64,000 bases of DNA from Eledone cirrhosa (lineage: Eukaryota), in contig OZ024745.1 of the NCBI GenBank assembly GCA_964016885.1, positions 23,684,001 to 23,748,000 on the forward strand. Reading direction: 5' to 3'. The notes beneath the pieces were generated by a model. That model worked only from the letters and a program-made list of their open reading frames with translations, was not told where the DNA came from and did not search any database. Both the position numbers and the translations under genes were made by a program. Positions 4,385-48,642 of this stretch are shown in pieces; position 1 is the first letter of the stretch, and every line of letters starts with the position of its first letter.

Positions 4385-4385
<1 letters not shown>

Positions 4386-4444
<59 letters not shown>

Positions 4445-4445
4445 A

Positions 4446-4486
<41 letters not shown>

Positions 4487-4500
4487 GTCTATCTATCTCT
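4386..4500. repeat. (ATCT)n tract 5' of Tx1 copy A
   Basis: Directly visible tetranucleotide repeat. Confidence 0.95.
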
Positions 4501-4709
4501 CTGCCTGAAGCGTGGAACATCGGCGGTGAGATTTTTTGTAAATTTATATACGAAAAACAGAACGAATTGTTTGAAAAAACATATTATTTTGGAGATTAAC
4601 CCCCAAGCTGAATTGTCAGCTGTATGGTAATCCCATTTTTCGCCCCTTTGGGGGCGAACATTTAATTTAAAAATTGTTTTAAAATATCAAATTTTGCCAA
4701 CTATAAAAC

Positions 4710-6560
4710 ATGAATAACACGACAAGAACGATATCTGCTTCTGCTACTATGGACGTCGCCATAGATACGACTGTCAACAAAGGAAAAAAAAATATTGCCA
4801 CTTGAAGATTGTACAATTTCTACCATCGAAGCAGAAAAACATGAAAACACAGGAATTAACCCATTAAAATACATACACATGAAAAAAACAACATCAACAA
4901 CTACACAGATACATCTACACATAAAGTTTCACCTCGTCAAGGAACTGAGATTTCCAACACCGAGGCTAACAACGATGACAACAACAACAACAACAGCAAC
5001 ACCACACAAAAAAAGAAAATGTCTTTCGCTGAAACAGTGAACAAAAAGCAAGATTGTATAAATCTTGACATCTCAAATGCAAGAGATATGCTCCAGCAAG
5101 GGAGAAAATTTGTAACTTTCGAAGAGAATGGTGGGTTTAGAATTAAATCACCCTTGAAATAAAAGAAGACAGTGCGCAGAACAGTGACCTTTAGGACTGA
5201 GTCCAATACCACGAGAAAGCCGATATTTGTTAGTCAAGGAGATATAGAAAATACATTGAAAGAAATTCTAGCAAATATCGAATTTCTCCAACGAGGAAAA
5301 CAGTACGGAAGTGTTTCCGTACTGTTTAAAAGCGAGGCACTCGCCTGAAAACATTCTGTGAGACCAATAGTGTCAAAAGCATTCACCTTTTTCCCTACAT
5401 ACATGGGAAAAAGGACACAAAAAAAAATATATATATACCACCAAACATTAACATCTGGTGGATCTTAGCTGGCTTCGTAGTGCCAGAAACTGATATGATT
5501 CTTTCGATACGAAAGTCTATTCGACAAAGGTGGGCGGGTACTGATTTGGAGATTCTCTTGCAAATGAGGCCGGAGAGAATCTCCAAAATACCCGAAAGAG
5601 TCGTCATCGATGATAACAACAAAATAAACATTTCGGTAGAAGGACGAAAATTTCGTTGCTTTCGCTGTGATAGCACAGCACACCTAAAAGCCTCTTATCC
5701 TTCACAAACACACCACAACAACATCATTAAAAAAACACTATTACCAACACCAAAGCAACCACCACCACCACAAGTACAACGACAGACGAAACGAGCAACC
5801 ACACCAAAACAAACAGCCACTCAACCAACAACAACAGAAAAAACAGAGACAACAACCCTGAAGAACACAGCCCCATCCCATCCCACTCCATCAAACACTA
5901 CCACAAACACACACACCGAAACACCACCACCACACAACATACCCCTACCCCACACTCCTGACGATGATTATTCATCGACAGATGAAGCTGCTTCACCTTC
6001 TTTAAGTGAAGACGAGGGAGAGCCGCGGAAATCTAAAAAACAAAAAAAAGAGACACCACAAAACCCCCAAAACTCCAATCACCAACACCAACACACAACC
6101 ACAGACACAAACAACAACACAAACAACACCACAGTCAAACATCCCCCTACCAGCAAAACCAACACCAACACCACCCCAAACACAAGCACCCACCATAAAA
6201 AGAAAACTCCCGGACGAACAACAAACTAAAACAACACAACAAAAACACAAACAACAATACGCATACATCAACACACAAACAACAAGAGTTTGATGGAGGT
6301 CATCTCCCCAAACCCCAAGGTGGAGATGGAGGGCAAAACTTTTGTCAAGGCAGAATCGTCTCCACACCTTAAACTTATAAGGGTTTCTATGGAAACCTAT
6401 AATGCCCTGAAAAATAAATTTTCACAGGACGTGGGCAACCCCTGCTAGAAACCCATCAACCGCGTCCTGTTAAAATGTTTCCCCACCCCACCCAACACCC
6501 CATCCAGCACCCAAATGGAGATTGAACAATCCGATCTCCAGGAAACGAAAAGGTAAATGA
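4710..6560 (+). pseudogene. ORF1 of copy A (frameshifted; zinc knuckle decayed, CFRCDSTAHLKASY)
   Basis: ORF 5480-6229 aligns with B/C ORF1 (QMRPERI..IP..V..D...INISVEGR). Confidence 0.8.
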
Positions 6561-6599
6561 ACCTTTCGTCCTTTTTCTCCAGCTCTTCTTCACCACTTC

Positions 6600-8785
6600 T
6601 TTCCCGACTGCACCACAGTGGACGTGGGCAAACCGTAGCGGGACATCTAGATCGTATTTAGATAGGTTCTTCATTAGAGAAAGGGACAAGGAGATGTTAA
6701 GCTGTCCACGAATGTACAAGTCACCCGGTCTAGATGGTCTACCCTATGAGTTTTACATAGGCATGCCGGACTTGTTCTCTGGCGTCCTCGAAGCCGTCTA
6801 CTGCAATTGGCAGCAGAACGGGAGAATTCCCAGTTCTGCAGGCAAGGGCGTAGTAACGCTGATCAGGAAAGACGAGAACAAGGGGGACGAAATTAACAAC
6901 TTCAGGCCCATAACTCTGCTAAGCACAGAGTTAATGATTTTGGCCAAGGTGCTAGCGACGAGGTTGGCGGCTGTCGTCGAGAATCTGGTAGGGAAAGCGC
7001 AATGGTGTGTAATCCCGACCTGGTCCATACACAACAACCTCCACCTCATACGATAGATCATAGAGAGGGTGGGTAGTAAATCCGGCTTCGGTGGGGTTCT
7101 GATCAATTTGGATCAGTCTAAGGCATTCGATAGGGTCGACCATCGATACATGGAAGCGGTTCTCAAGGCGGCCGGTTTCGGTCCCGTTTTTAGAGGTTGG
7201 ATCGAGGCGATGCACACCAGCATCTGCTCGAGGGTCAATGTGAACGGCTACTTATCGGAGCCGTTCGCAATCACGCGTTCTATTCGACGGGAGTGCCCTC
7301 TCTCCTCCATTCTGTATGTATTGACTCTAGAGCCACTACTGCGGAAATTGGAGCTGTTGCAGGGCATCCCTCTAGAACCGGGACTGTGCAAAGCGGCGAC
7401 GGCTTATGCCGACGACGTGACGGTAATGGTGTTGAGCACCTCGGAAATCGGGGTGATCGGTAATTTACTGAAAAAATACGAAACGCTGACGGGAGCAAAA
7501 CTGAACCCGGACAAGTCTGTCGGTTTGCAACTCCGTACGTGGAGAGGCAAACCGATGACGTCCGACAGCGTCATTGGACGCTGGACGGACGGACCGATAA
7601 AATTGCTCGGGGTCTGGTTCGGTCCAGACCTCCAGGTGGATAAAAACTGGAACGAGGTCACGGCCAAGGTGTTTGCACTTACCCAGAAGTGGGCAGAGTG
7701 CAAACTGTCCTTGAAAGGTCGAGCGGAGAGGGCGAACACTTTCATAGCGTCCGTCATCTACTACCGCTTGACTGTCGTGCCTTGTCCCCGTGAACACCTC
7801 GCCAAGTTGGAACGCATGCTCTTCCAGTTTCTGTGAAAGAAGCAGGCTCCACTGGTGAGGAGATACGTCTGCTGTCAGCACCCTTCCAACGGAGGGCTGG
7901 GAATGCTGTGGCTGATGATGCACCAACATGCGCTGAGGCTGCGGTATCTCCAGGTATTCCTCACCGACCCCCAACCGGTGTGGGCACCGTTTGTGAGACA
8001 GGCTTTCCGACAGCTCGTCTCCCTGACGGAGCTGCAGTCCTGGGTGAAGAAAAGACCGAAAACGATGGGCGCCTGGCACATTGAATGCGCTCAGGAGCTC
8101 ATAGTCCTCTGGCAAGCGGGCACAGCAATCAGTGGAGACTCCATTTCGACATTCTATAGAGGGATTGTACGTTACAAGGGCGACGACGTGCTCGGAGAGA
8201 CTCTAGGCGTCAATGACGATGAGCTCACCAGTCTGTTTGGTAGGACTTCCGCCCGGGACCTATGGACAATTTCCAGAGGTCCCTGGCCTGGCAGTGCTAC
8301 CGAGGAGCTCTACCGGTTCGTGACAATATTTACAGGCACGGACGCCCCGGCAGGGATCCTTCCAAGAAGACGTGTCCAAGATGCGCGCAGGACATTGAAA
8401 CAGGCCTGCACGCAATTAAACACTTCCCGGGCGTAACCGACCTGTGGAACTATGCAGAACAACTGCTGTCGCGTATGGAACAAATCCAGTTGACTGCCGA
8501 GTCCATAGTAAGGATCAAACCGCCAGCCTCTTTCAAAAACGAAAGAGAGGCGGTTTTCCTCTGTACGGTGGCTATGGTGAAAGAAATTATATGGTGGACG
8601 AAATTGAGAGGACTGAGGACAGATGCCTTTCTCTCTGGACAACAATTCCCTTCTTTAAATATCACTTTAGAAGGAGAATCAGGGTGGAGAGAGAGGCACT
8701 GCACCCCAGTAAATTTACTGAAAGGTGGGTGAATGAAGCGAAAATGTGCCGAGTGATTGGGCCTTCTCTGTTTATAAGCCTGTAG
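6600..8785 (+). pseudogene. ORF2 of copy A (most endonuclease deleted; RT with stops and frameshifts)
   Basis: KSPGLDGLPYEFY, LDQSKAFDRVDH, AYADDVTV, zf CPRC; stops at ~7054 and ~7834. Confidence 0.9.
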
Positions 8786-9018
8786 GTTGAGGAAGAGAGC
8801 AAAAGGAAGAAAGGAGCACTTGCACAACACGCTCCTTGAGTTGAGGGTTGTTCTATCGACGGGGTATTAAACAACCCATTTGTGGCGCCTCCCCCCTATT
8901 GGGGATTTCGATTGTTGAAATTGTTTGTTTTTATATTTTTTACACGACTGTATGTAAAATCCCCGGCATGTCTTTGTATTGTCCCCTTTCTTGTTGCGCC
9001 CTTGTGGCTATTAAAGAA

Positions 9019-9138
<120 letters not shown>

Positions 9139-9355
9139 AGTCGTGTGTCACTTCGCGGAGAAGTTTCCGTTAATTTATGTAAGGAAAAAACGTGAGTTTT
9201 TAGTTCAATTTTATATCATTGTGTAACTTGACCACCCGTCTGGACCTTCAGGTGGTGGGTCAACTCATTTTCGCCCCTTCAGGGGCGGAATATCCATTTA
9301 AAAAAATTTTCTCCATCGAATCTTGGAAAAAATATTGTAAAATTTTGATTACGTT

Positions 9356-11242
9356 ATGAACGCTGCGTCCAACGATAATGGTGGTGGAGAGGCGGTAAGA
9401 CTACAAAGCTCGCAGTCAACAACGTCTTCTTCACTAGATACTATAGAGATGGAAAGACAAAATGAAAATAAAAAAACGAATTCACATCCAAACAACACAA
9501 ATGACACCAAACAGCTCAATGACAACAAAAATAACAGCAAAACCAATAATGATGATAAAAGCAACAATGATAACAACAACAAAGAAAAAAATAAAGACAA
9601 CGCCAATAACACCAGCATCAAAGACAACAACAACACCAAGGAAAATACGGATGATACCAACATCGATGACAACAAGAATAACAACAAGAATAACAACAAT
9701 AATGACAACACCACCAATACGGATTCCACAAAGAAACCAAAAATCTTCTTTGCGGAGAAAGTTCAAAAGAAAGAACAATTGATATATCTCGACATAACAA
9801 ATGCTGAACACCTTTTAAAGGACGCTAAGAGATATGTCACCTTCGAAAAAAATGGTGCTTTCAGCATCAATTCTCCGGTAGAAATTCGCAAGGAAACTGC
9901 TCTCAAAACGATAGTTTTTAGGACAGTTTCCAATTCTACCCGAAAACCAGTCCAATTGTCACAGAAAGATATTGGACTGGTTTTCAAAGATTCAATGAAT
10001 GATATTGCATTCATTCAAAGAAGCAAACTTTTTGGGAGTATTTCGGTACTGATGAAGGATCAATTGACGGCCCAAAATTACTCTGTGTCGCCAATTGTAT
10101 CCAACCTGTACACCTTTTTCCCTACATACATGGGAAAAAGGACACAAAAGATCAGAATCACAAGTGTCACACCAAAGGTGAACATATGGTGGATACTGTG
10201 CGGCTTCATCAATTTTGATGAAGACAGAATACTGTCAGTAGGCAAGTCCCCCAGAGATGTATTCAATGGGACTAGCATTGAAGTTCTGGTGCAAATGAGC
10301 CCAGAGCGAATAGCTATGATCCCACAGCGTGTACTCCTGGACGGACTTACCTACATAAACCTTTCGGTTGAGGGTAGGCGGCCTTCATGTTACCATTGCT
10401 TTAGCAGGGGTCACCTGAGGGCTTCCTGTCCTAAACTAATGAACCAAAAAAAGGCTCTTCTGCCAACACCCATCAAAACAACACAACCACCAACACCACC
10501 ACTACAACAACAACACCAACACACAAAAATAACCACAACAAACACAGTCCCACCCAACCTCACTCCACCTAAAACCACTGCAAAATCACATACAGACACA
10601 ACAGCTCCCCAAGACATACCCCTCCCCAATCACACAGACGATACAACAGATGAGGCTATCTCGCCATCACCCAGTGAAGACGAGGGAGAACCCCATCGCT
10701 CGAAAAGAAAGAAAAGACATCACAAAAGCAAAAAACCAGCAAACACTACCACAAACATACAACCACCAACACAAACAACAAAAATATCACAAACAAAACC
10801 CCCACCTCCTGAAAACAAAATACCTACAACAAAACGAAAGCACACACAAGAACTACAGACAAAAACAAACACAACACAAGAAAATTACACTTACACTTAC
10901 ATAAACACTGAAAACAAAACACTAATGGAGACCATTACGAACGACCCCACTCTATAAAAAAATAGCAAAAAAATGAACCTAAAACTGATTAGGGTCCCTA
11001 TACAAACTTATAGGTCCCTAAAAGAAACATTTGAGAAGGATGTGGGGAATTCCTGCGTGAAACCACTCAACCGCGTCCTTCTCAAATGCCTCCCCACCCC
11101 AGACACCCCCATCCCACCAGACCCCACCCCACCAAACATCTGCGTCCCCACCCCGCCGGAAACCACCACCCATCCAGACAACCCCTCCAACACCCCCATG
11201 GAAATCGTGCGGCCTGGTCCCCAGGAGGCGAAGGGTGAGTGA
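9356..11242 (+). CDS. ORF1 gag-like protein, copy B (one in-frame stop at 10955-10957)
   Basis: Asn-rich N terminus, CYHCFSRGHLRASC (CX2CX4HX4C), Pro/Thr linker; ORF 10973-11242 continues in the same frame. Confidence 0.85.
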
Positions 11243-11275
11243 TCTCTTTTCCTCTTTTAACTTTTCAGCACCAAC

Positions 11276-14200
11276 ATGGCCAATATAAGAGTTGGATGTG
11301 TGAACGTACGCGGCCTGGGGATGCCCTGGAAACAGGGCAAACTCTTAAACGACCTCAGGTCGCACAGTTTGGATGTGGTAGCCATTTGCGAGTCCAGGAT
11401 CCACGGCGAGCGACAGCTGGCCCCCATCTTCGATGACTTTGAGATCTACGCATCTCTCTGTCAACCGGGGGGTGGGGGCGGAGTTGCCGTTTTGCTGCGG
11501 AAACACCTGGGCCTCGTAACACAGACGGTACATCTGGACCCGGAGGGTCGACTGGTGGTCCTAGACGTTGACGGTAGTGAAGGTGGAGCGTTCAGGCTGG
11601 TGGCCGCATATGCCCCATCCGGGACACCGCGGCCAGACTTCTTCAAACGTCTAGAGACTTTTCTGGGAACGTCCCGCTCCTTGCTTTTAGTGGGGGACTG
11701 GAATGGAATCCTAGATGCACGTTGGGACTATGTGGGAGCATGTCCCGATAAAGGGGGTGTAACAGCCTCAAACAGTTAATCGACCGATTTGACCTGGCCG
11801 ATAGATATCGACTAGATTTTCCGACTGCGCCACTGTGGACGTGGAGTAATCGTAGCGGAACATCTAGATCGTACCTAGATAGGGTTCTAGTTAGAAATAA
11901 GGATAGGGACATGTTAAGCTGTCCACAAATGTTCATGGTTGCCTATTCAGATCACAAACTAGTGACCTGCATGGCCAACCTTGATAGAACCCATAGACAA
12001 GGACCCGGCTACTGGAAGCTGAACTTGTCGTTACCGACAAGCAAAGCCTACAGTAGACGGATTAGCACTTTAGTTAAACAGCACTTGACAGGGGCCATTG
12101 TCAACAACAGATGGTGGTACTCTCTCAAGAGGGCAGTTAGATTAGACTCGATAGTTTTTAGTAAAGAATTAGCGTTAGATAGAAATAGAACCGAGAAGGA
12201 ACTGGTAGATAAAGTAGAAGAGGCTATTAGAAGTGGCAACGTAGCCAGCGTGCTAGCAACGAGAACGGCCTTGGACCAGTTCTTCGACGCAAAGCACGAG
12301 GGCTGCGTTGTCAGAAGCAAAATACGTGCTCTGGGAAACGAGGGAGCCAAAGGTGTTAGCTGGGCCCGAGTGACGGAGGCAAAAAGTGGCAACAAGTCCA
12401 CGATTCGGTCTTTGAAGGACCAAAACGGACGCGTGATACGTGAGCCGAAGCAGATGTGTGCGGCTTTTCAGCGGCACTTTGCTCGGCTGTTCGGGGGGAG
12501 CGGCGCGCCGGGAGAGGCTATGGATTTCGGTCCATACCTCGACGGCCTACCGCGACTCTCGGACAGCGAGGCGAAGTTCTGCGAAAAGCCGATTTCAGCC
12601 ACTGAGATAGGGGACGCGCTGAGCCAATGCGGCAAACGCAAATCACCAGGTCTCGACGGTCTACCCTACGAATTTTACGTAGCAATGCCGGACTTATTCT
12701 CCGGTCTCCTGGAAGCGGTCTACTGCAACTGGCAACAGAACGGGAGAATTCCCAGTTCTGTAACCGGGGGCGTGGTCACACTAATCAGGAAGGACGAGAA
12801 TAAGGGGGATGACATAGGCAACTTCCGGCCCATAACTCTGCTAAACACAGAGTTACAGATTTTGGCCAAGGTGTTGGCAAAGAGGCTGGCGCTTGTCGTC
12901 GAGAACCTGGTGGGAGAAGCGCAGACATGCGCGATCCCGACCAGGTCCATACACGACAACCTCCACCTCATGCGATACATCATAGAGAGGGTAGGGTGTA
13001 AACCCGGCTTCGGTGGGGCCCTGATCAACTTGGATCAGTCTAAGGCTTTCGATAGGGTTGACCATCGTTACCTGGATGCGGTGCTCGAGGCGGCAGGCTT
13101 CGGACCCGTGTTCAGGGGCTGGATTGCTGCAATGCACAACAGCAACATCTGCTCAAGGGTCAAGGTGAACGGTTACCTCTCGGAGCCGTTCCATATTACG
13201 CGATCCATTCGACAGGGATGCCCTCTCTCCTCCCTTCTGTACGTACTGACTCTCGAGCCACTACTGCGGAAGCTGGAGCTATTGCAGGGCATCCCTCTGG
13301 AACCGGGACTGCGGAAAGCGGCGTCGGCCTACGCCGACGACGTGACAGTAATGGTGTCGAGCGCCTCGCAAATCGAGAAAGTCGGCACCTTACTAAAGGA
13401 ATACGAAAGTCTCACAGGAGCGAAGCTGAACCGGGACAAGTCCATCGGTTTGCAACTCGGATCGTGGAGAGGCAGACCGATGCCTTCCGATGGCGTCGTC
13501 GGACGCTGGACGGAAGGACCGGTAAAGCTGCTCGGGGTCTGGTTTGGTCCGGACCTCCAGGTGGAGAAGAACTGGAACGAAGTGACGGCCAAGGTGTTTG
13601 CACTCACCCAGAAGTGGGCCGAGTGCAAACTATCCTTGAAAGGTCGAGCGGAGGTGGCGAACACTTTTATAGCGTCCGCCATCTACTACCGCTTGACCGT
13701 CGTGCCTTGTCCAGCCAAAACGCTCGCCAAAATGGAGCGCGCCCTCTTCCGATTCCTTTGGAAGAGGCGGGCTCCTTTGGTAAGAAGATCCATCTGCTGC
13801 CAACACCCTTCTAACGGAGGGCTGGGGATGCCGTGGTTGACGATGCGCAAACACGCGCTCAGGCTGCGGCATCTCTACGTATTCCTCACCGGACAACCGG
13901 TGTGGGCCCCGTTCGTGAGGCGAGCCTTCCCACGACTCGTCTCACTGACCGAGCTGCAGTCCTGGGTCAAGCAGAGACCGAGGAAAATGGGCGACTGGCA
14001 CATCGAATGTGCTCAGGCGCTCACAGCCCTCTGGCAGGCGGACCCGGCGATCAGTGGAGACTCCACTTCGTCATTCTATAGAGGGTTGGTCCGCAGCAAG
14101 TGCGACGACGCGCTCGGTGAAACTCTAGGCGTGGAGGAAGATGAACTGGCCAGTCTGTTCGGTAGGACCTTCCGCCCGGGACCGATGGACAACTTCCAAA

Positions 14201-14712
14201 AGTCCCTGGCCTGGCAGTGCTACCGAGGAGCTCTACCAGTTCGAGACAAGCTCTACAGACATGGGCGCCCGGGCAGGGACCCTGCAAAAAAGATCTGTCC
14301 GAGGTGCGTGCGAGACGAAGAAACCGTCGCGCACGCATTCATACACTGCCCGGGCGTCACTGACCTGTGGGGATATGTAGAACGACTATTGTCGCGGGTG
14401 GGACCAATCCAGTTGACCACCGAGTCCATTGTCATGATCAAACCGCCACCCTCCTTCAAAAACGAAGGAGAGGCGGTTTTCCTTTGTGTGATAGCTATGG
14501 CGAAAGAGGTTGTATGGTGGACAAGGTTGAAAGGGCTGAGGTCAGACACCTTTCTCTCCGGCCAACAACTGATTCTTTTTTTCAAATACCACTTTGGAAG
14601 AAGAATCAGGATGGAGAGAGAGGTGCTGTACCCCAGCAAGTTTTATGAAAGGTGGGTGAAAGTGGCGAGAATGGCCCGAGTGAATGGGCCTTCTCTCTAT
14701 ATCAGCCTGTAG
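11276..14712 (+). CDS. ORF2 APE endonuclease + reverse transcriptase + Cys/His zinc finger, copy B (1-nt frameshift near 11755)
   Basis: NVRGL, GDWN, SYLDR, SDH endonuclease motifs; RQGCPLS and YADD RT motifs; CPRC...HAFIHC; G5 here versus G6 in copy C at the frameshift. Confidence 0.92.
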
Positions 14713-15436
14713 ATTGAAGAAAAGGAGGAGGAGAGGAAAGGAGTACAAGCTCTTCGTACTCCTGGAGATGAGGGTTGCACATTTTTTTCGGGGGTATGTG
14801 TTACCCATATAAACTGTCTCCCTCTATTGGGGAAAATCGACTAACTTTTAAATTCCATCTGTGATAACATTTTACACGTTTTTATTGTATGTAAACTTCC
14901 CCCTTTGTATTTGTCCCCTTCTTTTGTGCCCCTGTGGCTAATAAAGAAATATATCTATCTATATCTATATATATATATATTTTACCACTGTCGTAAAAAA
15001 AGCCTTCTGGATTATCTCCCTTTCTCTTCTCCTTCTCCTCACTTTTGGTTGCACGTGTCTCTCTCTCACTTTCTCCTGTCTATGTGAGAGGCAGCACGAT
15101 TATACCAGCTCTGAGTCGTAGCTGACCACTAGGCTAAAGTCTCCCAGGTTGGCCACAACTTACTTTCCCTATTTTTCCACGGTTACCCATTTGCATGTTT
15201 ATTTCACCTGTGTCTTCCCACGATAGGACCTGTTCACTTTTTTTCTCCTATTCTTTTTCTATTTTTTCTCCATTTTTCCTTCTCCCTTTCTTCCTCTCTC
15301 CTCATTTTCTTCCACCCTCTGTTCTTCCTCTTTTCCCTCTCTTTCCTTTTCTCTCTCCTTTTTTTCTCCCCTTTTTTTTCTCTCTTTCTCTCTCATTTTC
15401 CTCCTGGCCTGTTGATTAATAAAAGGCCTCGGGCGC

Positions 15437-22051: not shown

Positions 22052-22334
22052 TATACAAAAGCCAACCGGGCTGTGTATGCAACACTCCAATCAGTAAACG
22101 ATGATGCAATTCGGTTCAAGCACTCAACTACATATGTACAAATGTGATTTGGTTGCCCATGGCAGAATATACCCACAATAATGATAATTACGAAGACTTT
22201 AATGTGGATATTTATAATTCATTTTATTCCTAATCTGCCCTAATACATATTTCTGAGGTATTCATGATAATGAAATGCATTCATCACACAACCACCAACA
22301 CGACTTCATCAGACAGTATCTTAAGTAATAAGTG

Positions 22335-22517
22335 TTTCTACTTTTGGCACAAGGCCAGCAATTAATTACCCAGTGCATTACTGGTACTTTATTTTATCGA
22401 CCCCGTAGGGATGAAAGGCAAAGTTAACCTCGGCGGGATTTGAACTCAGAATGGCAAGGGCCGTAACTCTATGCGTCATAAGCATGGCGTCCGACCCTAT
22501 ACCGATACTGCCAATAA
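22335..22517 (-). mobile_element. tRNA-derived SINE with Nin-like domain (family 2)
   Basis: Reverse complement reads GGCAGTATCGGTA..GAGTTCAAATCCCGCCGAGGTTAACTTTGCCTTTCATCC..GGGGTCGATAAAATAAAAGTACCAG. Confidence 0.8.
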
Positions 22518-26348: not shown

Positions 26349-26619
26349 AGGTGTATGTATACATGTATATATACATATATATACATATATATGTATATAT
26401 AACCCATGCTAGCGTGGAAGAATGGACGTAAAACGGTAATGATGATGATGATGATGATGATATAGTATTGATATGATTAAATAGAGATGCTGTAGTGACA
26501 AAATCGTTGGTGCGTCGGACAAATTGATTTACTGTAACTAGCTTCGGAGCTTTACGTTCTGAATTGAAACCCCACCGAAGTAAACGTTACTATTTATCCT
26601 TCAGGAATGAAAAATAATA

Positions 26620-27003
26620 ATTGTTTCTACTTCAGACACAAGGCCAGCAATTACCTAGTACATTACTGGTACTTTATTTTATCGACCCCGTAAGGATGAA
26701 AGACAAAGTTAACCTCGGCGGGATTTGAACTTAGAATGGCAAGGACCGTAACTCTATGCGTCAAAGCATGGCGTCCGACCCTCTACCGATACTGCCAATC
26801 CACCACCTTAATAATTATTTCTACTTTAGGCACAAGGCCATCAATTATTCAGTACATTACTGGTACTTTATTTTATCGACCCCGTAAGGATGAAAGGCAA
26901 AGTCAACCTCAGCGGGATTTGAACTCAGATCGTAAAGGGACGTAACTATGCTCGAAATCATGGCGTCCGACTCTCCACCGATACTGCCAATCCACCACCG
27001 CCA
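26620..27003 (-). mobile_element. Two tandem SINE family 2 copies
   Basis: Core repeated at ~26635-26810 and ~26828-27003. Confidence 0.85.
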
Positions 27004-28129
27004 ATAATAATTTACCCTGAACTTATATTATTTGATGTGTCAGTTTTTAAGTTGGTAGCCAAACAGCTGGAGATGGTTTTCATTTAAGTTGCCAAAGGGA
27101 TTTTGTTAAAGGGTGATATCAAGGATGAGCCTTTTTACGATTTTTTTTTTCTTTTGGGGTGCGTAGAGTACGATACTAAGTTGGTTATATTTTTCATAGG
27201 TTTACTTGTATTTTAGTTTTTATTCATTTTTCAAATTCTGAGAATTTAGAATGTTTTTTTTTTTAATGCGAGGCAAGTCTATGAGGCAAGAACAGTACTC
27301 ATGATTCATCACGAGGCCTCCGATACTAGTGGAAGAAGGGGTGGGGGGAGTATTTTAAAACGGGAACCCTTTTCCAAGTACATAAAAGCATACAAGAATC
27401 TGGTGATTGTGCTAAATCGGGGACGAGTTATGTCGACAACACAAGAATTCCTCGGTGGAATTTTAACAAATGGCGTAAAACATCTCACCCGAAGCTCTAA
27501 TAATTCTGTCAATCTACCGAAAGGAAGAAAAGCAAAAATTTACTTTCGTGGGATTTGAACTCAGACCACAATGAGTCCAAACAAATATCCCAAAGGAGAT
27601 TTGGTTTTCGCTTTAATGATTCTGCCAATTCGCCGCCTTTGAATGCTGGTAAAAGTAATAAATCCATCAAATTCTAGAGGTTTTAGATGTGTTTTTGTTA
27701 TTCCCCATCGGTTTTCAGTTATTTGATGAGTGTAAAGTGTCAAGGTCCTTGTCTTAAGGTGTTAGGTCTCGCTCATGTTTGATGTGGCCATTGTTAAAAC
27801 TGTCGATACTACTAAATACTTTCTCTGCTATTTTATTGCTTGATTTATAATACATGTACACTACTGATATTTGCATGTTTTAGTTTTATTTTGTCTCTCG
27901 TCGCCTAATCTCTTCGTTTCTTTGTTGCTTGATGTTTATTTTTATTTCATTTGTCTGCAGGGTTGGTATGGTACATGTGAACTTATTCCTAGTTTTTGTT
28001 TTTACACACACATACACATACACACACACATATACACACACATAGACACCTATATATATAGAGAGAGAGCGATTGGTATATATATATATATACACATACG
28101 CGGCCCCTCACACACACACACGCACACAC

Positions 28130-28292
<163 letters not shown>

Positions 28293-28299
28293 CATATAC

Positions 28300-29140
28300 A
28301 TAATATAATGTGCGACAGTAAATGCAGACTCTGCAGAATTAAGATCAAAGATATCCCTCTTGACATAAACAGATGTCCAAAGATGTCATCACGGTACTAT
28401 CTACCTATGAGGCATGATGTAGTGGCTAAAACACTGTACAATGCAATCCGTAGAAAAGATAGTCCCGACAATAAACACATTAAAAGATACAGCAATGTGG
28501 AAGACATACATATATATAATATGAAAGGGCATTGGTGGAATGTTCCAGTAAAAACCCCAATAAAATGCAGGCATAACAGACCAGATATTATGATATGGGA
28601 CAGGGAGAAGAAAGCATGCACAGTAGTGGAAGTTAACTGCCCAGCAGATGCCAATATAATATCAAAGATTAGTGAAAAGGAGAATATTTATGCAGAACTG
28701 ATGAGAAATCTGCAGATATTCCACCCTGATTATACCTTCAGATTTATACCTGTGATTATTGGGGCACTGGGATATGTTAGTAACTGCCTCAATACAAATC
28801 TTGAGAAGCTGGGCTTCACAGGAACAGAAAGAACACAACTAGTTGGGAAATTACAAGTACAATCCATTAAAGAAACAGTAAAAATATGTAAAACATTCCA
28901 AAAATGTTGCATCTAATAACTGAATATACACATGTAGAGATACAAAGCATATACACATGCACACATACAACTCAAAACATCCACATCCACACATACAGTA
29001 ACATCCATATCTACACATGCATACATACTGACATGCATACATATCTACCTAGTTGATGTTGTGTAAATTCTTGTGTCTACGTTAGAAACCGATTCTCTCT
29101 CTATTGGCAAAAATGTATAAAATCATAAAACCAGACGAAC
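28300..29140 (+). mobile_element. 5'-truncated R4/Dong-like RLE retrotransposon, copy 2
   Basis: ORF 28308-28916: CRLC...CP...RHDVVAK...RHNRPDIMIWDREKK..VVEV..P...K..EK..Y (PD-(D/E)xK RLE); 3'UTR ends CCAGACGAAC then (ATAC)n. Confidence 0.85.
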
Positions 29141-35325: not shown

Positions 35326-35394
35326 GGTCCTCTGGAGGTATTAGTTGTGTTACGTGGAGGAGAGGGATTAGTATTAACAGTGTGCTGTGCCTTT

Positions 35395-37181
35395 AAGGTG
35401 GTGGTGTACCTAGCTAGGAGTAGGCACGGGTGGATGGGACCAAGGTGGTGGTGTACCTAGCTAGGAGTAGGCACGGGTGGATGGGACCAATGTGGTGGTC
35501 TACCTAGCTAGGAGTAGGCGCGGGTGGATGGGACGAAGGTGGTGGTGTAGCTAGCTAGGAGTAGGCGCGGGTGGATGGGACCAATGTGGTGGTCTACCTA
35601 GCTAGGAGTAGGCGCGGGTGGATGGGACCAAGGTGGTGGTGTAGCTAGCTAGGAGTAGGCGCGGGTGGATGGGACCAAGGTGGTGGTGTAGCTAGCTAGG
35701 AGTAGGCGCGGGTGGATGGGACCAATGTGGTGGTCTACCTAGCTAGGAGTAGGCGCGGGTGGATGGGACGAAGGTGGTGGTGTAGCTAGCTAGGAGTAGG
35801 CGCGGGTGGATGGGACCAAGGTGGTGGTGTAGCTAGCTAGGAGTAGGCGCGGGTGGATGGGACTAAGGTGGTGGTGTAGCTAGCTAGGAGTAGGCGCGGG
35901 TGGATGGGACCAAGGTGGTGGTGTACCTAGCTAGGAGTAGGCGCGGGTGGATGGGACCAAGGTGGTGGTGTAGCTAGCTAGGAGTAGGCGCGGGTGGATG
36001 GGACCAAGGTGGTGGTGTACCTAGCTAGGAGTAGGCACGGGTGGATGGGACCAAGGTGATGGTGTAGCTAGCTAGGAGTAGGCGCGGGTGGATGGGACTA
36101 AGGTGGTGGTGTACCTAGCTAGGCGTAGGCGCGGGTGGATGGGACCAAGGTGGTGGGGTAGCTAGCTAGGAGTAGGCGCGGGTGGATGGGACTAAGGTGG
36201 TGGTGTACCTAGCTAGGAGTAGGCGCGGGTGGATGGGACCAAGGTGGTGGGGTAGCTAGCTAGGAGTAGGCGCGGGTGGATGGGACTAAGGTGGTGGTGT
36301 AGCTAGCTAGGAGTAGGCGCGGGGGGATGGGACCAAGGTGGTGGTGTAGCTAGCTAGGAGTAGGCGCGGGTGGATGGGACCAAGGTGGTGGTGTAGCTAG
36401 CTAGGAGTAGGCGCGGGTGGATGGGACCAAGGTGGTGGTGTAGCTAGCTAGCAGTAGGCGCGGGGGGATGGGACCAAGGTGGTGGTGTAGCTAGCTAGGA
36501 GTAGGCGCGGGTGGATGGGACCAAGGTGGTGGTGTAGCTAGCTAGGAGTAGGCGCGGGTGGATGGGACCAAGGTGGTGGTGTACCTAGCTAGGAGTAGGC
36601 GCGGGTGGATGGGACCAAGGTGGTGGTGTACCTAGCTAGGAGTAGGCGCGGGTGGATGGGACCAAGGTGGTGGTGTAGCTAGCTAGGAGTAGGCACGGGT
36701 GGATGGGACCAAGGTGGTGGGGTAGCTAGCTAGGAGTAGGCGCGGGTGGATGGGACCAAGGTGGTGGGGTAGCTAGCTAGGAGTAGGCGCGGGTGGATGG
36801 GACCAAGGTGGTGGTGTAGCTAGCTAGGAGTAGGCGCGGGTGGATGGGACCAAGGTGGTGGTGTACCTAGCTAGGAGTAGGCGCGGGTGGATGGGACCAA
36901 GGTGGTGGTGTAGCTAGCTAGCAGTAGGCGCGGGTGGATGGGACCAAGGTGGTGGGGTAGCTAGCTAGGAGTAGGCGCGGGTGGATGGGACCAAGGTGGT
37001 GGTGTAGCTAGCTAGGAGTAGGCGCGGGTGGATGGGACCAAGGTGGTGGTGTAGCTAGCTAGGAGTAGGCGCGGGGGGATGGGACCAAGGTGGTGGTGTA
37101 GCTAGCTAGGAGTAGGCGCGGGTGGATGGGACCAAGGTGGTGGTGTAGCTAGCTAGGAGTAGGCGCGGGTGGATGGGACCA
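35395..37181. repeat. 47-bp G-rich minisatellite, ~38 units
   Basis: Unit AGGTGGTGGTGTAGCTAGCTAGGAGTAGGCGCGGGTGGATGGGACCA. Confidence 0.95.

Positions 37182-37464: not shown

Positions 37465-37496
<32 letters not shown>
37465..37496. repeat. (ATCT)8 tract 5' of Tx1 copy C
   Basis: Directly visible. Confidence 0.95.
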
Positions 37497-37497
<1 letters not shown>

Positions 37498-37698
37498 GAT
37501 AGAGTAAGACACGCTTCGCATCGGCTCCGCTATTCCATCGGGATTTACCCTTACTATTGTAAGTACCGGATACATTTTTTAGTGCAACACATTTGGAACA
37601 CTAACCCCTGTTATTTAGGGAAACATTTTTGCATTTACCCCCTTTTTAGGGGGTAAAATAAATATCTATTTTTGCCGAAAAATTTCTTTCTTGGCAGC

Positions 37699-39534
37699 AT
37701 GGCGGAAAAGATGGCAGACATGTCTGCCATTAGCTCTGCCACGCCCCCCAAGTCTGAAGAACAAAAAATAATTACAACAAAATTAGACATTGAAACAAAC
37801 AAACAAAATGAAAAAACAAATGTTAAGGAAAATGAGCAAACAGAAAACAAACAAACAGAAAATAATACAAATAACGACAGGGCAACTTTCGCCCAGAAAA
37901 CAAAGCAATCCATTACATACACACCAATTGACCTAACTGCCGCCAGAGAAAAACTGGCCGAAGCAAAGAAACATATTGTTTTGGGGGAGAACGGAATGTT
38001 TTCCATTAACTCCCCCCCAGAATTCAAGAAAGCCAGAGCAGAAAACACAGTTATATACAGAACTATACTAAACCAGTCAAGAAAGCCAGCACAGCCCAGC
38101 CAAATGGAAATAGAGTTAGTCCTAAAAGACTATATGAAGAATATTCTCTTCATACGAAAGGACCGACTCTATGGCAGCATTTCGGTCCTAACAAGAGACA
38201 AAGAAACGGCGGTTCAGCTTTCCCTAAGCCCACTCTCGTCGACAACATATAGCTTCTATCCCTCCTACATGGGTAGAAGAACACAGAGAATAAAAGTAAA
38301 AACAATGCTGCCCACAATGGACTTCTGGTGGGCTATTGCTGGCTTCATTGATATGGGCGAAGACACTATGCTGTCAATGGGGAAGGCAACTGGAGATGCG
38401 TTCCTGGGAATGGGCCTCGACATACTAGTCCAAATGAGGCCCGAAAGAATAGCACAAATCCCGGATCGCATCTGGCTGGATGACCTTACCCCAATAGACA
38501 TAATTGTAGAGGGGAGAAGACCAGCATGCTATTTATGCATGGAAAGGGGACACGTTAAGGCTAACTGCCCGAAACGTATCCCCCAAAAAGGACTATTGCC
38601 CACACCCACCACAAACAGTACACCAGCACCACCCACCTCCAAAAATACACTAATACCACACACAGCAAACAAAATACAGACACCACCAACCACAAACACA
38701 ACACAAACATCACCACCACCAGCACCAAACACAAGCACGACACAAAAATCACCACCACCAACCACAACACAAACATCACCACCACCATCACCAACCACAA
38801 GCACGACACAAACATTACCACCACCACCACCACAAAACCCATTCCAAACAAATAATAAAAAAAACAGTAACAAATCTACCCCTCCCGCAAAAAAAAAACA
38901 ACCACACAACACGTCCCTCCCACCTAGCGCTGAAGAGTTTCCCCCAACTTCTGAAGAAGAAGGAGGAGAAGCCTTCAGACAAGTTAAAAGAAAAAAAAGA
39001 AAACACACACCCAGCACACCACAAATAACCCACACACAAACACCAACTCCAATCAAAAACACCCCACCCTCAACAAACAAAAATAAATCTGCGCCTCCCC
39101 TCTCCGAAACATTGACAGCATCACAAAAAAAGACGTTGTAATACACATATATAAATAAAGAAAACAAAAAACTGGTTAAATTAATAAACAATAACCCTAT
39201 GGTGCAGACCGAAGGGCCAAACTTTATCTCAACAGAGAACTTCACCCATTTAAAAATGATAAAGGTCCCTCTGGACCTTTATCGTTCCTTAAAAGAACAA
39301 TTTAGACGGGACGTGAGCCCCCCCTGTTTAAAACCGTTGAATCGCGTCCTCTTGAAAGATTTCCCCATAACCGCCCCTCTCCCTGACACAACTCCAAATA
39401 CCCCAACCCCACCACACACGTGTACCCCCACACCACCACAAAACATCCCTCCACCCAACACACCTGATGCCATGGAAATTACGCAACCCGGAGAGGTAAG
39501 TGCTTTTCTTTCTTCACTTTCAACACCAAAATAG
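37699..39534 (+). CDS. ORF1 gag-like protein, copy C (one in-frame stop at 39139-39141)
   Basis: CYLCMERGHVKANC zinc knuckle; reading continues in frame after TAA as YTYINKENKKL...KPLNRVLLK. Confidence 0.85.
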
Positions 39535-42500
39535 ATCAATTGAGAGTTGGCTGTTTGAACGCGCGTGGCCTGAGCTCAGCTTGGAAGCAAGCAAAGCTTC
39601 TAAGTGACCTCAGGTCACAAAGTATAGATGTGATGGTTGTTTGCGAGAGTCGGATCAGCAGCGTGAGACAGCTGGCGCCCGCCTTCGATGACTTTGAGAT
39701 GCACGCATCTCTCTGTCAACCCGGAGGCGGGGGGGGGGGAGTTGCCGTACTGCTGGATAAACGTCTGACTCTCGACGTACAGATTGTTCACTCGGACCCG
39801 GGGGGTCGATTACTGGTGCTGGACGTCGGAGGTGGTGAAGGCGGGGCTTTCAGACTGGTCGGTCTTTATGCTCCCTTCGGGGCGGAGAGAGCCGACTTCT
39901 TCCAACGTCTGGAGACTTTTCTAGGAACGTCGCGTTCCCTGCTTTTAGTGGGGGACTGGAATGGAATCCTAGATGCGCGTTGGGACTATGCAGGGGCATG
40001 TCCCGATAGAGGGGGGTGTAGCAGCCTCAAGGGGTTACTCGATCGATTCGACCTGGTCGATAGATTTCGACTAGATTGTCCAACTGCGCCAACCTGGACC
40101 TGGGCAAACCGCAGTGGACAATCTAGATCGTACCTAGATAGGTTTTTGGTTAGGAGTAAGGATAGGGACGTATTTAGTTGTCCAGAACTGATCATGGTTG
40201 GCTATTCAGATCACAAATTAGTGACCTGCGTGGTCAACCTTGATAGAACGCATAGACAGGGTCCCGGTTACTGGAAGATGAACTTGTCCTTACCGACAAA
40301 GAAAGATTACAGAAACCGGATTAGTAGCTTAGTTAAGATGCGGTTGACGGGAGCGATCGTCAACAGTAGGTGGTGGATATCTCTAAAGAGAGAGATTAGA
40401 GTAAGTTCGATAGGTTACAGTAAGGAACTAGCGGCGAATAGAAATAGGAGGGAAAGGGAGTTAACAGATAAACTAGAAGAGGCGATTAGGAGCGGAGACG
40501 TAGCCAGAGTGTTAGCGACGAGAACGGCATTGAGCCAGTTCTTTGACGCGAAGCACGAAGGCTGCGTTGTCCGAAGTAAAATACGTGCTTTAGGAAACGA
40601 GGGGACCAAAGCTGTTAGCTGGGCCCGCGTGACAGAAGCCAAGAGTGGGATTAAATCCACCATTCGGTCTTTGCGAGACCAGGATGGACGGGTGATCCTT
40701 GAACCTGAGCGAATGTGCGAGACCTTTCAAAGGCACTTTGCTCGACTGTTCGGAGGTGGCGGGGGGCCGGACGAGGATGTGGACTTCGGTCCATACCTCG
40801 ACGGTCTACCGCGTCTTTCGAGCGGCGAAGCGGAGTGCTGCGAAGGGCCAATCACAGCCACTGAAATCGGGGAAGCGCTCAGCCAATGCAGCAGACGCAA
40901 ATCCCCGGGTCTCGATGGTCTACCATACGAACTTTATTTGGCTATGCCGGTCTTGTTCTCCGAACTCCTCGAGGCTGTCTATTGCAACTGGCAACAGAAC
41001 GGGAGAATTCCCTGTTCTGTGACCAAGGGCGTGGTCACGCTAGTGAGGAAGGACGAGAGCAAGGGGGACGACTTAAGTAACTTTAGGCCCATAACTCTGC
41101 TGAATGCAGAGTTACAGATTTTGGCCAAGGTGTTGGCGAAGAGGTTGGCGCTTGTGGTGGGTGGTTTGGTGGGAGACGCGCAGACATGCGCTATCCCGTC
41201 CAGGTCCATTCACGACAACCTCCACCTCATGCGATACATCATAGAGAGGGTTGGCTACGAACCCGGCTTTGGTGGGGCCCTGATCAACTTGGATCAATCT
41301 AAGGCGTTCGATAGGGTCGACCATGGTTACCTGGATGCGGTGCTAGCGGCGGCGGGCTTCGGACCCGTTTTCAGGGGCTGGATTTCTGCCATGCACAGTG
41401 GCAACATCTACTCTAGGATTAAAGTAAACGGCTACCTCTCGGAGCCGTTTCAAATCACCCGATCCATCAGACAGGGGTGCCCCCTCTCCTCCCTTCTGTA
41501 CGTATTGACTCTCGAGCCACTGCTGCGGAAGTTGGAGTTGCTGCGGGGCATACCCCTGGAACCGGGATTGCACAAAGCGGTCTCGGCCTATGCCGACGAC
41601 GTAACAGTAATGGTGGCGGACGCCTCGGAAATCGGGGCGATCGCCACCCTACTGGAGGAATACGAAAGGCTGACGGGGGCTAAGCTGAACCAGGACAAGT
41701 CAGTCGGTTTGCAACTCGGAACGTGGAGGGGCAAACCGATGCCGTTAGACGGTGTCGTCGGGCGGTGGACGGAGGGCCCGGTGAAGCTGCTCGGGGTCTG
41801 GTTCGGACCGGACCTCCAGGTGGAGAAGAATTGGGGCGAGGTGACGAGCAGGGTGTTTGCGCTGACCCAGAAGTGGGCCAAGTGCAAACTATCACTGAAA
41901 GGTCGGGCGGAGGTGACGAACGCTTACATAGCGTCCGTCATCTACTACCGCCTGACCGTCGTGCCTTGCCCCAAGGAAAAGCTCACCATCATGGAACGCA
42001 TGCTCTTCCAGTTCCTCTGGAAGAAGCGGCCTCCCATGGTGAGGAGATCCATCTGCTGCCAGCACCCTTCGAAAGGAGGGCTGGGTATGCCGTGGCTGTT
42101 GATGCGTAGGCACGCATTGAGGCTACGGCATCTACAGGTATTCCTCAACGGTCAGCCGGTGTGGGCCCCGTTTGTGAGGCGAGCCTTCCCACAGCTCGTC
42201 TCGCTCACCGAACTGCAATCCTGGGTGAAGCAAAGACCGAGAAAACTGGGCAACTGGCACACTGAGTGTGCCCAGGCGCTCACGGCTATCTGGCAAGCGG
42301 ACCCGACTGTCAGTGGAGAATCCACCTCGACATTCTATAGAGGGTTGGTGGCTAGCAGGGGCGACGACACCCTTGGAGAGTCGCTAGGCATGGAGGAGGA
42401 CGAACTGGCCAGCCTGTTCGGTAGAACTTTCGGCCCGGGACCCATGGACAACTTCCAGAGGTCCCTAGCCTGGCAGTGTTACCGGGGGGCTCTGCCCGTT

Positions 42501-42971
42501 CGAGAAAAGCTCTACAGACACGGGCGCCCGGGCAGGGATCCCGCGAAAAAGATCTGTCCCAGATGCGTGCGCGACGAGGAAACCGTTGCGCATGCACTGG
42601 TACACTGCCCGGGCGTTGCCGATCTGTGGGGCTACGTCGAACGACTGCTGTCGCGTGTGGCGCCGATTCGATTAACCGCCGAGTCTGTGGTGAACATCAA
42701 GCCGCCTCCTCCCTTCAGAAATGAAGCAGAGGCGGTCTTTCTGTGCGTAATAGCCATGATGAAAGAGGTTGTGTGGTGGACGCGCCTGAAAGGTCTGAGG
42801 TCGGGTGACTTTCTCTCCGGCCATCACCTGGTTTACTTCTTCCGATACCACTTCGGAAGAAGAATCAGGATGGAGAGAGAAGTGCTTGGTCCCAGACAGT
42901 TTTATGAAAGGTGGGTGAAAGAAGCGAGAATGGCCCGTGTAAATGGGCCTTCTCTCTACATTGTTCTGTAG
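39531..42971 (+). CDS. ORF2 APE endonuclease + reverse transcriptase + zinc finger, copy C (position of B's ATG reads ATA)
   Basis: Open 1143 codons; NARGL, GDWN, SYLDRF, SDH; RQGCPLS, YADD; CPRC..HALVHC. Confidence 0.95.
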   Translation: MDQLRVGCLNARGLSSAWKQAKLLSDLRSQSIDVMVVCESRISSVRQLAPAFDDFEMHASLCQPGGGGGGVAVLLDKRLTLDVQIVHSDPGGRLLVLDVGGGEGGAFRLVGLYAPFGAERADFFQRLETFLGTSRSLLLVGDWNGILDARWDYAGACPDRGGCSSLKGLLDRFDLVDRFRLDCPTAPTWTWANRSGQSRSYLDRFLVRSKDRDVFSCPELIMVGYSDHKLVTCVVNLDRTHRQGPGYWKMNLSLPTKKDYRNRISSLVKMRLTGAIVNSRWWISLKREIRVSSIGYSKELAANRNRRERELTDKLEEAIRSGDVARVLATRTALSQFFDAKHEGCVVRSKIRALGNEGTKAVSWARVTEAKSGIKSTIRSLRDQDGRVILEPERMCETFQRHFARLFGGGGGPDEDVDFGPYLDGLPRLSSGEAECCEGPITATEIGEALSQCSRRKSPGLDGLPYELYLAMPVLFSELLEAVYCNWQQNGRIPCSVTKGVVTLVRKDESKGDDLSNFRPITLLNAELQILAKVLAKRLALVVGGLVGDAQTCAIPSRSIHDNLHLMRYIIERVGYEPGFGGALINLDQSKAFDRVDHGYLDAVLAAAGFGPVFRGWISAMHSGNIYSRIKVNGYLSEPFQITRSIRQGCPLSSLLYVLTLEPLLRKLELLRGIPLEPGLHKAVSAYADDVTVMVADASEIGAIATLLEEYERLTGAKLNQDKSVGLQLGTWRGKPMPLDGVVGRWTEGPVKLLGVWFGPDLQVEKNWGEVTSRVFALTQKWAKCKLSLKGRAEVTNAYIASVIYYRLTVVPCPKEKLTIMERMLFQFLWKKRPPMVRRSICCQHPSKGGLGMPWLLMRRHALRLRHLQVFLNGQPVWAPFVRRAFPQLVSLTELQSWVKQRPRKLGNWHTECAQALTAIWQADPTVSGESTSTFYRGLVASRGDDTLGESLGMEEDELASLFGRTFGPGPMDNFQRSLAWQCYRGALPVREKLYRHGRPGRDPAKKICPRCVRDEETVAHALVHCPGVADLWGYVERLLSRVAPIRLTAESVVNIKPPPPFRNEAEAVFLCVIAMMKEVVWWTRLKGLRSGDFLSGHHLVYFFRYHFGRRIRMEREVLGPRQFYERWVKEARMARVNGPSLYIVL

Positions 42972-43202
42972 GTGAAGAAGTGAAGAGGAAAGGGGGAGCG
43001 CCTCCTCTCTGGGCTTCCCCCGCGAAAAGAGTTGCACACTTTTCGGGGGTATGTGCAATCCCCAACACGCCCCCTCCCTTTTGAGGACTTTTTATTGTTA
43101 TATTATTATTGTTATTCCTTTTTTCTTTACTCGATTTATGTAAACTCCCCCACTGTGTAAATGTCCCCTTCTTTTGTGCCCTCGTGGCAAATAAATAGAA
43201 AT

Positions 43203-43261
<59 letters not shown>

Positions 43262-43284
43262 GCTATCTATCTATCTATCTATCT
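43203..43284. repeat. (ATCT)n spacer between Tx1 copies C and D
   Basis: Directly visible. Confidence 0.95.
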
Positions 43285-46200: not shown

Positions 46201-46819
46201 TGCCGATCTGTGGGGCTATGTCAAACAACTGCTGTCAAGGATGGGACCGATCCGGTTGACCACCGAGTCTATTGTAACGATCAAGCCGCCTCCCCTCTTC
46301 AAAAACGAAGGAGAGGCGGTGTTTCTGTGCGTAATAGCCATGGCGAAAGAGGTTGTATGGTGGACGCGTCTGAAAGGACTGAGGTCAGACACCTTTCTCT
46401 CTGGCCAACAACTGGTCCGTTTCTTCCGATATCATTTCGGAAGAAGGATCAGGATGGAGAGAGAGGTGCTACACCCCAGCCGTTTCTATGAAAGATGGGT
46501 GAAAGTGGCGAGAATGGCCCGTGTGAATGGGCCTTCACTCTACATCAGACTATAGGTGAGGAAGATGAAAGACCAAGGGAGCACCCCTTCTCTGTGCTCC
46601 TGAGGAGAAGGGTTGCACACTTTTTTCGGGGGTGTGTGCGACCTCCCAAGGCGCCTCCTCTCTATTGAGGACTTTGTTATAAATTTTATTTTTTGTTATA
46701 TTTTATTTTATTTTTATATATTGTTATTGCCTCCTCCTTATTGAGGACGCCTTGTTTTGTAATCTCCCCCCATTGTACTTGTCCCACTTTTGATGCCCTG
46801 GTGGCAAATAAAAGAAACA

Positions 46820-46820
<1 letters not shown>
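43285..46820 (+). mobile_element. Tx1/L1-clade LINE copy D, 5'-truncated inside the endonuclease, degenerate
   Basis: Starts at LLNDLRSQ; stops at ~44308 and ~45853; deletions at ~45770 and ~46022; 3'UTR then (ATCT)n at 46821-46870. Confidence 0.92.
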
Positions 46821-46870
<50 letters not shown>

Positions 46871-48475: not shown

Positions 48476-48642
48476 TCAAGGATATAGAATGGTGTATGAA
48501 GAGAATGGTGTATGAATACATGAAAGTTTTATGGCTATTAGAAGTGGTGTGAGGAAATGTTTAGCTATTCTAGGAAAGACAACAGACTCTGCTAAAGGAG
48601 AGAGGAAGAAAGAGTGAGAGAAAGAGAAAAAGAAAGAGTGTA

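Follow-up and report, generated by a model that had tools for sequence, protein, structure and literature searches.

A candidate 5′ splice site where ORF1 ends in L1/Tx1-like LINEs of Eledone cirrhosa and a sister family

We analysed a window of 64,000 nucleotides (nt) from Eledone cirrhosa (assembly GCA_964016885.1, contig OZ024745.1, positions 23,684,001 to 23,748,000 of the forward strand), which carries four copies of a long interspersed element (LINE) with a pair of open reading frames, termed ORF1 and ORF2, all on the + strand. Copies A, B and C were compared at the ORF1/ORF2 junction, which copy D lacks (Table 1). Pfam matches in ORF2 (PF03372, PF00078 and PF13966) correspond to an apurinic/apyrimidinic endonuclease (APE), a reverse transcriptase (RT) and a C-terminal zinc finger, as in the L1 group, and the solved structure closest to ORF2 is human L1 ORF2p (E 7e-50; R2 gives 1e-22). 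ORF1 is separate, again as in the L1 group, with an RNA recognition motif (RRM) and/or a CCHC knuckle: C gives a weak zf-CCHC match (E 0.015), the Atlas look-alikes of ORF1 are CCHC/RRM proteins at 0.90–0.92, and the named relatives are CCHC-type proteins of the octopods Argonauta hians, Octopus sinensis and O. bimaculoides. Word-index searches with ORF1 and searches of viral collections returned no match, and Rfam returned none in the window or in copy L097 of the sister family described below.

A (TATC)n repeat adjoins the 5′ side of all four copies, and TATC or degenerate TA/TC repeats lie on their 3′ side. Microsatellite insertion, two ORFs and an APE-RT-zinc finger ORF2 are likewise found in the Tx1 families Kibi and Koshi (PMC4494074), whose targets are (TC)n and (TTC)n, a comparison made by description. 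From this target preference the window LINEs are likely members of Tx1; thirteen recently active L1-Tx1 families are reported from Octopus vulgaris (PMC13282606). The copies form two head-to-tail pairs, A–B (4385–15000) and C–D (37466–46870), with only (TATC)n between the partners, as expected if the same microsatellite is hit again and again. ORF1 of B and C (C: 37699–39534) share 48% amino acid identity with saturated fourfold sites, and their ORF2 82% with 66% of fourfold sites alike, a contrast suggesting that the 5′ half was exchanged between lineages.

Table 1. LINE copies and junction-related features in the window.
Feature	Position	Strand	Description
Copy A	4500-9020	+	Decayed; bulk of endonuclease domain lost right after junction (~6600)
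5′UTR donor of A	4526-4531	+	GTGAGA; rank 6
A junction	6550-6597	+	AAG|GTAAAT, GT at 6553; stop TAA within donor; pyrimidine tract; AG ends at 6582
Copy B	9140-14950	+	Full length, L1/Tx1-like, in (TATC)n; early ORF1 stop 10955-10957; frameshift near 11755
5′UTR donor of B	9192-9197	+	GTGAGT; rank 6/274; U-rich run after it
Twin 5′UTR hairpins of B	9230-9295	+	Acceptor-like AG 9282 in second loop, 91 nt past 5′UTR donor
ORF1 of B	9356-11242	+	RRM-like and CCHC region; actual stop TGA 11240-11242
B junction donor	11232-11242	+	AGG|GTGAGT, GT at 11235; overlaps last ORF1 codons and stop
U/C-rich tract of B	11243-11266	+	Donor +9 to +32; read as TIA-type donor helper and inter-ORF spacer
AG of B	11267-11268	+	Acceptor-like, rank 1/369; at aligned position in B only; 7 nt before ATG 11276
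ORF2 of B	11276-14712	+	Encodes APE endonuclease, RT and zf-RVT; strong-context ATG; in frame with ORF1
ORF2 end of B	14689-14712	+	Pyrimidine-rich last codons plus AG; weak candidate partner acceptor, rank 3/369; coding also explains it
Copy C	37497-43200	+	Full length; ORF2 open over 1146 codons; early ORF1 stop 39139-39141
5′UTR donor of C	37559-37564	+	GTAAGT; rank 5; two acceptor-like AGs follow, 37649 (91 nt further) and 37697
C junction	39493-39534	+	GAG|GTAAGT, GT at 39496; pyrimidine tract; no AG (CAA ends at 39523)
Copy D	43286-46815	+	5′-truncated ~70 nt inside ORF2; no junction; start not at acceptor position

The original prediction had described a conserved splice donor, pyrimidine tract and acceptor at the junction, with further donors in the 5′ untranslated regions (5′UTRs), and its motif letters and coordinates for the three junctions and the three 5′UTR donors proved correct. 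Scored with a generic animal matrix, not fitted to the host, the junction GT is the top sense-strand donor of each element, ranking 1/204 in A, 1/274 in B and 1/267 in C. ORF1 of B ends GGT GAG TGA, so that the donor shares its last codons and stop, and both ORFs use a single frame interrupted by two stops. In C the ORF1 frame continues through donor and tract to a TAG that overlaps an ATA (39531) at the ORF2 start position; this stop-start overlap with a non-AUG codon (39531–39534) occurs in a copy whose ORF2 is open. The donor is thus kept while the ORF1 frame shifts through all three phases (2 in A, 1 in B, 0 in C), so no fixed peptide explains the motif, and the fourfold sites of ORF1 are saturated between B and C (12/46 alike). 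A variant with one extra base before the donor, as in A, is present in contigs of sequencing runs X1, X4 and X5 (depth 1189/18629, 8/59 and 43/43).

Two further features were seen around the end of ORF1. The UGGGA core of a termination upstream ribosome-binding site (TURBS) was not found upstream of the junction; a conserved in-frame ATGGARAT (M-E-I) in good start context stands there instead, 12–14 codons before the donor in all three copies (6517, 11199 and 39473). Among distant ORF1 relatives, seen as proteins only, two end in G-K-S-stop or G-K-stop, as phase-1 read-through of a donor would give; such ends occur in 2/7 of the relatives that carry the C-terminal motif and in 5/150 overall.

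The same junction was examined in a sister family of 61 loci, all from one record found in a scan of prokaryote genomes and arranged as tandem arrays of intact two-ORF LINEs. Sister ORF2 is 41% identical to that of C, sister ORF1 is homologous (E 1e-11 to 1e-9), and the tree places the family and the window elements in one clade with support 100/99; the rows of the tree are unnamed, the clade has 11 of them, five of its members are without DNA, and only clade membership was used. In 61/61 sister copies G|GTAAGT comes directly after the ORF1 stop, and a further seven bases lead to the ORF2 ATG; the donor AAG|GTAAGT thus lies outside the coding sequence, with 13 nt from GT to ATG. It ranks first or second in the 6/6 elements scored. 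Sites scoring at least 5.5 number 2–5 per sister element, so by our estimate such a site would land 10 nt or less from the ORF1 stop with a chance of about 1%. As controls, 80 of 83 loci were kept, of which 43 reach the ORF2 start; 10 were dropped (9 near-duplicates and 1 lacking an ATG), leaving 33 scored, 14 of them with a locatable ORF1 stop. In these L1-group elements, at 22–32% identity, a donor of such strength at the ORF1 stop was seen in 0/14, donor plus acceptor before ORF2 in 0/33, and a strong acceptor alone in 1/33.

The record from which the sister copies come is listed in GTDB as a bacterial metagenome-assembled genome. It holds at least 61 mostly intact copies on many contigs, with a period of ~6.4–6.9 kb, apparently eukaryotic host DNA that entered the bin as contamination; a head-to-tail LINE array is an unusual arrangement.

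The conserved unit is the donor and not a donor–acceptor pair. On the common CACCA block of the window copies, B has AG at the acceptor position, where C has AA and A has TT; the AG of A lies ~12 nt upstream of the aligned AG of B and is the best acceptor of its element (1/274), and the best AG near the junction of C ranks 115/374. On the branch leading to C, 89 changes are silent and 40 are replacements, and 1084 codons of ORF2 contain no stop, yet C has neither the AG nor the ATG. C is thus little decayed, and independent decay hits on exactly these two sites are unlikely. With no pyrimidine tract and no AG before ORF2 in any of the 61 sister copies, an acceptor upstream of the ORF2 start is found at the aligned site in 1/3 window copies and in 0/61 sister spacers, and the AG of B is best read as incidental, outside any conserved 3′ splice site. 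The donor element of the original prediction therefore holds in A, B, C and the sister family and the acceptor element does not; the tract recurs in A, B and C, not at the sister junction. In the window copies it has 16–18 pyrimidines in 19 nt (donor +10 to +28), a content equalled after only 6/272 GT sites of B and 7/265 of C. TIA proteins bind U-rich RNA 10–28 nt past donors and recruit U1, as shown for TIA1/TIAL1 enhancers in human cells (PMC2964331); here such binding is predicted from position. Because the tract lies at the TIA position, and because a donor-plus-tract unit also follows sister ORF2 with no fixed AG, the tract is best read as part of the donor module, a putative U-rich helper of the donor rather than part of a 3′ splice site.

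Taken literally as a micro-intron, the 28–34 nt segment of the junction would be excised to fuse ORF1 to ORF2, which we regard as very improbable. In A and B, GT, tract and AG do stand in intron order, and the one-base-longer variant puts donor and AG in the same phase. The segment is, however, below the usual animal intron size (PMC13644364), its frame outcome is inconsistent (the phases differ in A, B and C), a host intron class near 30 nt is unlikely with octopod relatives, and the sister family has just 13 nt there. An intron removed from the template RNA would moreover vanish on transposition, and contigs span the segment unbroken. As originally stated, the ORFs of B are not joined in frame when the 34 nt are deleted; fusions through the mini-segment (inconsistent phases) or through the AGs at 11289 and 11291 (ranks 229 and 299 of 369) were rejected.

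The 5′UTR donors score moderately and do not share one alignment column, and shuffling gave P values of 0.04, 0.07 and 0.035 for A, B and C (2000 shuffles each, with the window picked after the fact). They are echoed in the sister family, where AAA|GTAAGT lies 50–64 nt in for 34/48 copies, the remaining 14 having a weaker GTAAGA at a more internal position. The 5′UTRs of all three window copies also fold into twin hairpins (4590–4670, 9230–9295 and 37600–37660; z −4.7, −2.9 and −2.7), the second of which shows a compensatory change. B and C, unlike A, carry a top-ranked AG resembling an acceptor in the loop of this second hairpin (9282 and 37649), each exactly 91 nt after the 5′UTR donor; in B and C this donor and loop AG may possibly form an ordinary 5′UTR intron.

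The original prediction joined the 5′UTR donor by splicing to the AG that precedes the ORF2 ATG, which would yield an ORF2-only mRNA and was thought unusual for an L1-group element. A precedent already exists in human L1 SpORF2 (PMC2896524), and for B-type copies such splicing retains a small probability. The AG of B is the best acceptor of its element (1/369) and precedes a strong-context ATG by 7 nt, the AG of A is also top-ranked, and 5′UTR donors recur in the sister family. Summed contig depth rises at the ORF2 start, from 38,700 to 105,800 in X1, a step that cannot rank the readings and that is expected from subfamilies sharing ORF2 but not ORF1. This AG is nevertheless present at the aligned site in only 1/3 copies (C has neither AG nor ATG) and in none of the 61 sister copies, and copy D does not start at it.

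Six sequencing runs match 9140–14950, none of them recorded as RNA, which carries no information on expression. To look for spliced copies, contigs of four of these runs were placed on 9140–12000 only, with 15 of 51 joints and 24 of 848 loose ends listed. Among the joints listed there is neither the 9191–11269 joint expected from leader-to-ORF2 splicing nor any other GT..AG joint at the junction, and contigs cross the 5′UTR donor (9142–9484) and the junction unbroken. On this stretch an acceptor beyond 12000 would be visible only as a loose end. Nor do any of the contig differences listed (40 of the 617 other letters and 12 of the 55 indels) fall at 11235–11280, which is not proof of conservation. 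Two structures in the window, the deletion in A and the 5′ end of D, were rejected as splice products, as neither end lies at a GT/AG.

Downstream of ORF2, the sister family carries a candidate partner for the junction donor. A donor and a pyrimidine run lie 15 nt after the sister ORF2 stop, followed 218–263 nt further by a tract and YAG, in all 56 copies that reach it. The whole forms an intron-like unit of the 3′UTR (8477–8726 in L097 and equivalents elsewhere), composed of donor, U-rich run, CCGAC, pyrimidine tract and YAG and kept in 56/56. Donor-like sites also stand right after the ORF2 stop of C (GTGAAG, 42972, rank 8) and D (GTGAGG, 46556, rank 2), not in A or B.

We tentatively propose, at slightly short of an even chance, that the junction is a 5′ splice site, i.e. 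a site for the U1 small nuclear ribonucleoprotein (snRNP), under selection at the ORF1 stop, and that optional splicing from it drops ORF2 to give an ORF1-only mRNA. Such splicing would take out ORF2 as a ~3.5-kb intron with an acceptor at or beyond the ORF2 end, and its product would provide surplus ORF1 protein. Under the 50-nt rule for nonsense-mediated decay, an exon junction at the stop codon would allow the spliced mRNA to evade degradation. The unspliced RNA, presumably bound by U1, would serve as the transposition template, and ORF2 could be translated from it by termination-reinitiation across a gap of 0–33 nt. Gaps of 33 nt in B and 14 nt in the sister family, and the overlap in C, fit reinitiation as in human L1 (63-nt spacer) and SART1 (UAAUG), which as described in PMC5972666 involves no splice donor, in contrast to the junctions here. 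Since the sister 3′UTR acceptor is well formed in 56/56 copies, it suggests genuine splicing. In a wider version, which we hold more doubtfully, a clade of L1/Tx1-like LINEs would run selected alternative splicing in which donors in the 5′UTR, at the ORF1 stop and at the ORF2 stop compete for a shared acceptor at the 3′ end; each donor would sit by a stop codon so that its products escape decay, the spliced mRNA would make ORF1 protein and the unspliced RNA alone would be copied. Of the splicing outcomes first envisaged, the ORF1-only mRNA and the maintenance of splicing signals thus gain support from the sister donors, and the leader-to-ORF2 mRNA loses it with the unconserved AG.

Several observations weigh against this proposal. 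No ORF2-less copy was found: 62/62 sister ORF1-end anchors continue into ORF2, among loci that were found by ORF2, with neighbours only considered and overlaps multiply counted. The intron-like stretch of the sister 3′UTR is retained in 56/56 copies. The candidate partner acceptor in the window is weak (ranks 3–6) and varies in position, and the codons there are pyrimidine-rich anyway. The sister junction donor has no U-rich helper, in phase 2 the stop codon itself provides the TRA of GTRA, and the splice matrix is a generic one. As 66% of ORF2 fourfold sites are alike between B and C (256/390), A, B and C share the motif partly by descent; the sister copies are likewise one lineage (fourfold identity 91–100%), so the comparison amounts to two independent lineages, i.e. 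one replicate and not 64 cases. With unspliced copies and a weak partner acceptor, two rival explanations fit nearly as well.

In the first, the donors would be landing sites for U1 snRNP without splicing, where U1 blocks premature polyadenylation, helps elongation or keeps the full-length RNA nuclear. Though unlikely in our judgement, this would account for donors being kept while partner acceptors vary, with none before sister ORF2 and none before ORF1 in the commonest sister type (35/57 anchors), and for all genomic copies examined being unspliced. AATAAA occurs in the ORF1 regions of B (2) and C (6, including the 5′UTR), and unspliced EVD RNA is protected by U1 (PMC5580714). ORF2, which lies downstream of the donor, is by contrast free of AATAAA in B and C and leaves little for U1 to protect, and the well-formed 3′UTR acceptor in 56/56 sister copies also points away from this explanation.

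The second rival, to which we likewise assign a low probability, takes the junction as a translational spacer only, composed of a stop, a U-rich gap or weak hairpin and a start context, with ORF2 made by reinitiation and the splice likeness a by-product. In A, B and the sister family the stop falls within or beside the motif, and in C it overlaps the start position; the two ORFs of B, which share a frame and are parted by two stops, resemble the human L1 arrangement with its spacer (PMC5972666), and T-rich spacers are common in L1 (PMC5381506). The purine run can pair with the pyrimidine run in A, B and C, but the junction hairpins of B and C do not exceed shuffles (z −0.2 to −1.3). A spacer leaves unexplained the perfect GTAAGT after the sister stop, the further top-ranked donors in the sister 5′UTR and after sister ORF2, and the absence of the motif in 14/14 controls; reinitiation itself is also compatible with splicing from a selected donor.

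The closest parallel to the proposed ORF1-only splicing is found in Ty1/copia elements (Arabidopsis EVD shGAG and Drosophila copia), where a U1-binding donor is conserved at the end of the structural gene, as here (PMC5580714). In copia and EVD splicing has been demonstrated: it yields a Gag-only mRNA, with an intron of ~3 kb in copia, and the unspliced RNA is the template (PMC5580714). Ty1/copia elements have long terminal repeats and a single Gag-Pol frame (PMC5580714), whereas the window LINEs are non-LTR and bicistronic, have an ORF1 with its own stop, and their splicing is predicted from sequence conservation. The partner acceptor here is uncertain, being present in the sister 3′UTR (56/56) and weak and variable in position in the window. 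Human L1, of the same group, also has 5′UTR donors and spliced forms (SpORF2 and SpIREs), whose spliced retrocopies are dead ends (PMC2896524, PMC5860796). Its acceptors lie within ORF1 and are regarded as incidental, in contrast to the donor conserved here, and the passages considered in these two papers mention no donor that is fixed where ORF1 stops. In the main text of two octopus repeat papers the string "splic" is absent (PMC13282606, PMC9115989).

Elsewhere in the window, a LINE fragment with a restriction-like endonuclease motif, judged by eye, lies at 28062–28916. A dispersed family of 190-nt repeats (22323–22515, 26612–27010, 48130–48478, 50872–51092 and 53940–54160) presumably resembles octopod short interspersed elements. 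Long minisatellite arrays occupy 35394–37181 and 48918–50630, with periods of ~47 and ~21 nt from self-BLAST offsets.

It is still debated how a LINE balances its output of ORF1 and ORF2 protein when both come from a single bicistronic RNA, with internal ribosome entry sites and reinitiation as candidates (PMC5381506, PMC5972666). In L1, splice sites are usually viewed as accidents that give dead ends (PMC5860796). L1 RNA is already known to be spliced, and copia to make a Gag-only mRNA by splicing; what appears to be new here is a donor fixed at the ORF1 stop of LINEs across a deep clade. Neither a LINE with a conserved donor at that position nor an ORF1-only spliced mRNA was found in the literature, subscription papers, Repbase reports and supplements lying mostly outside the search. 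Tamura, Kajikawa and Okada (2007) reportedly dealt with splice sites in zebrafish LINEs. If the motif is merely a spacer, the elements would represent an ordinary new family of microsatellite-targeting LINEs. Retention of the donor across 41% ORF2 identity and three phases points to purposeful use of the spliceosome or U1 by LINEs. It would also predict that these high-copy elements supply strong donors to host transcripts in octopods. The clade-wide splicing programme, if true, would be for LINEs what the Gag strategy is for copia, arrived at independently.

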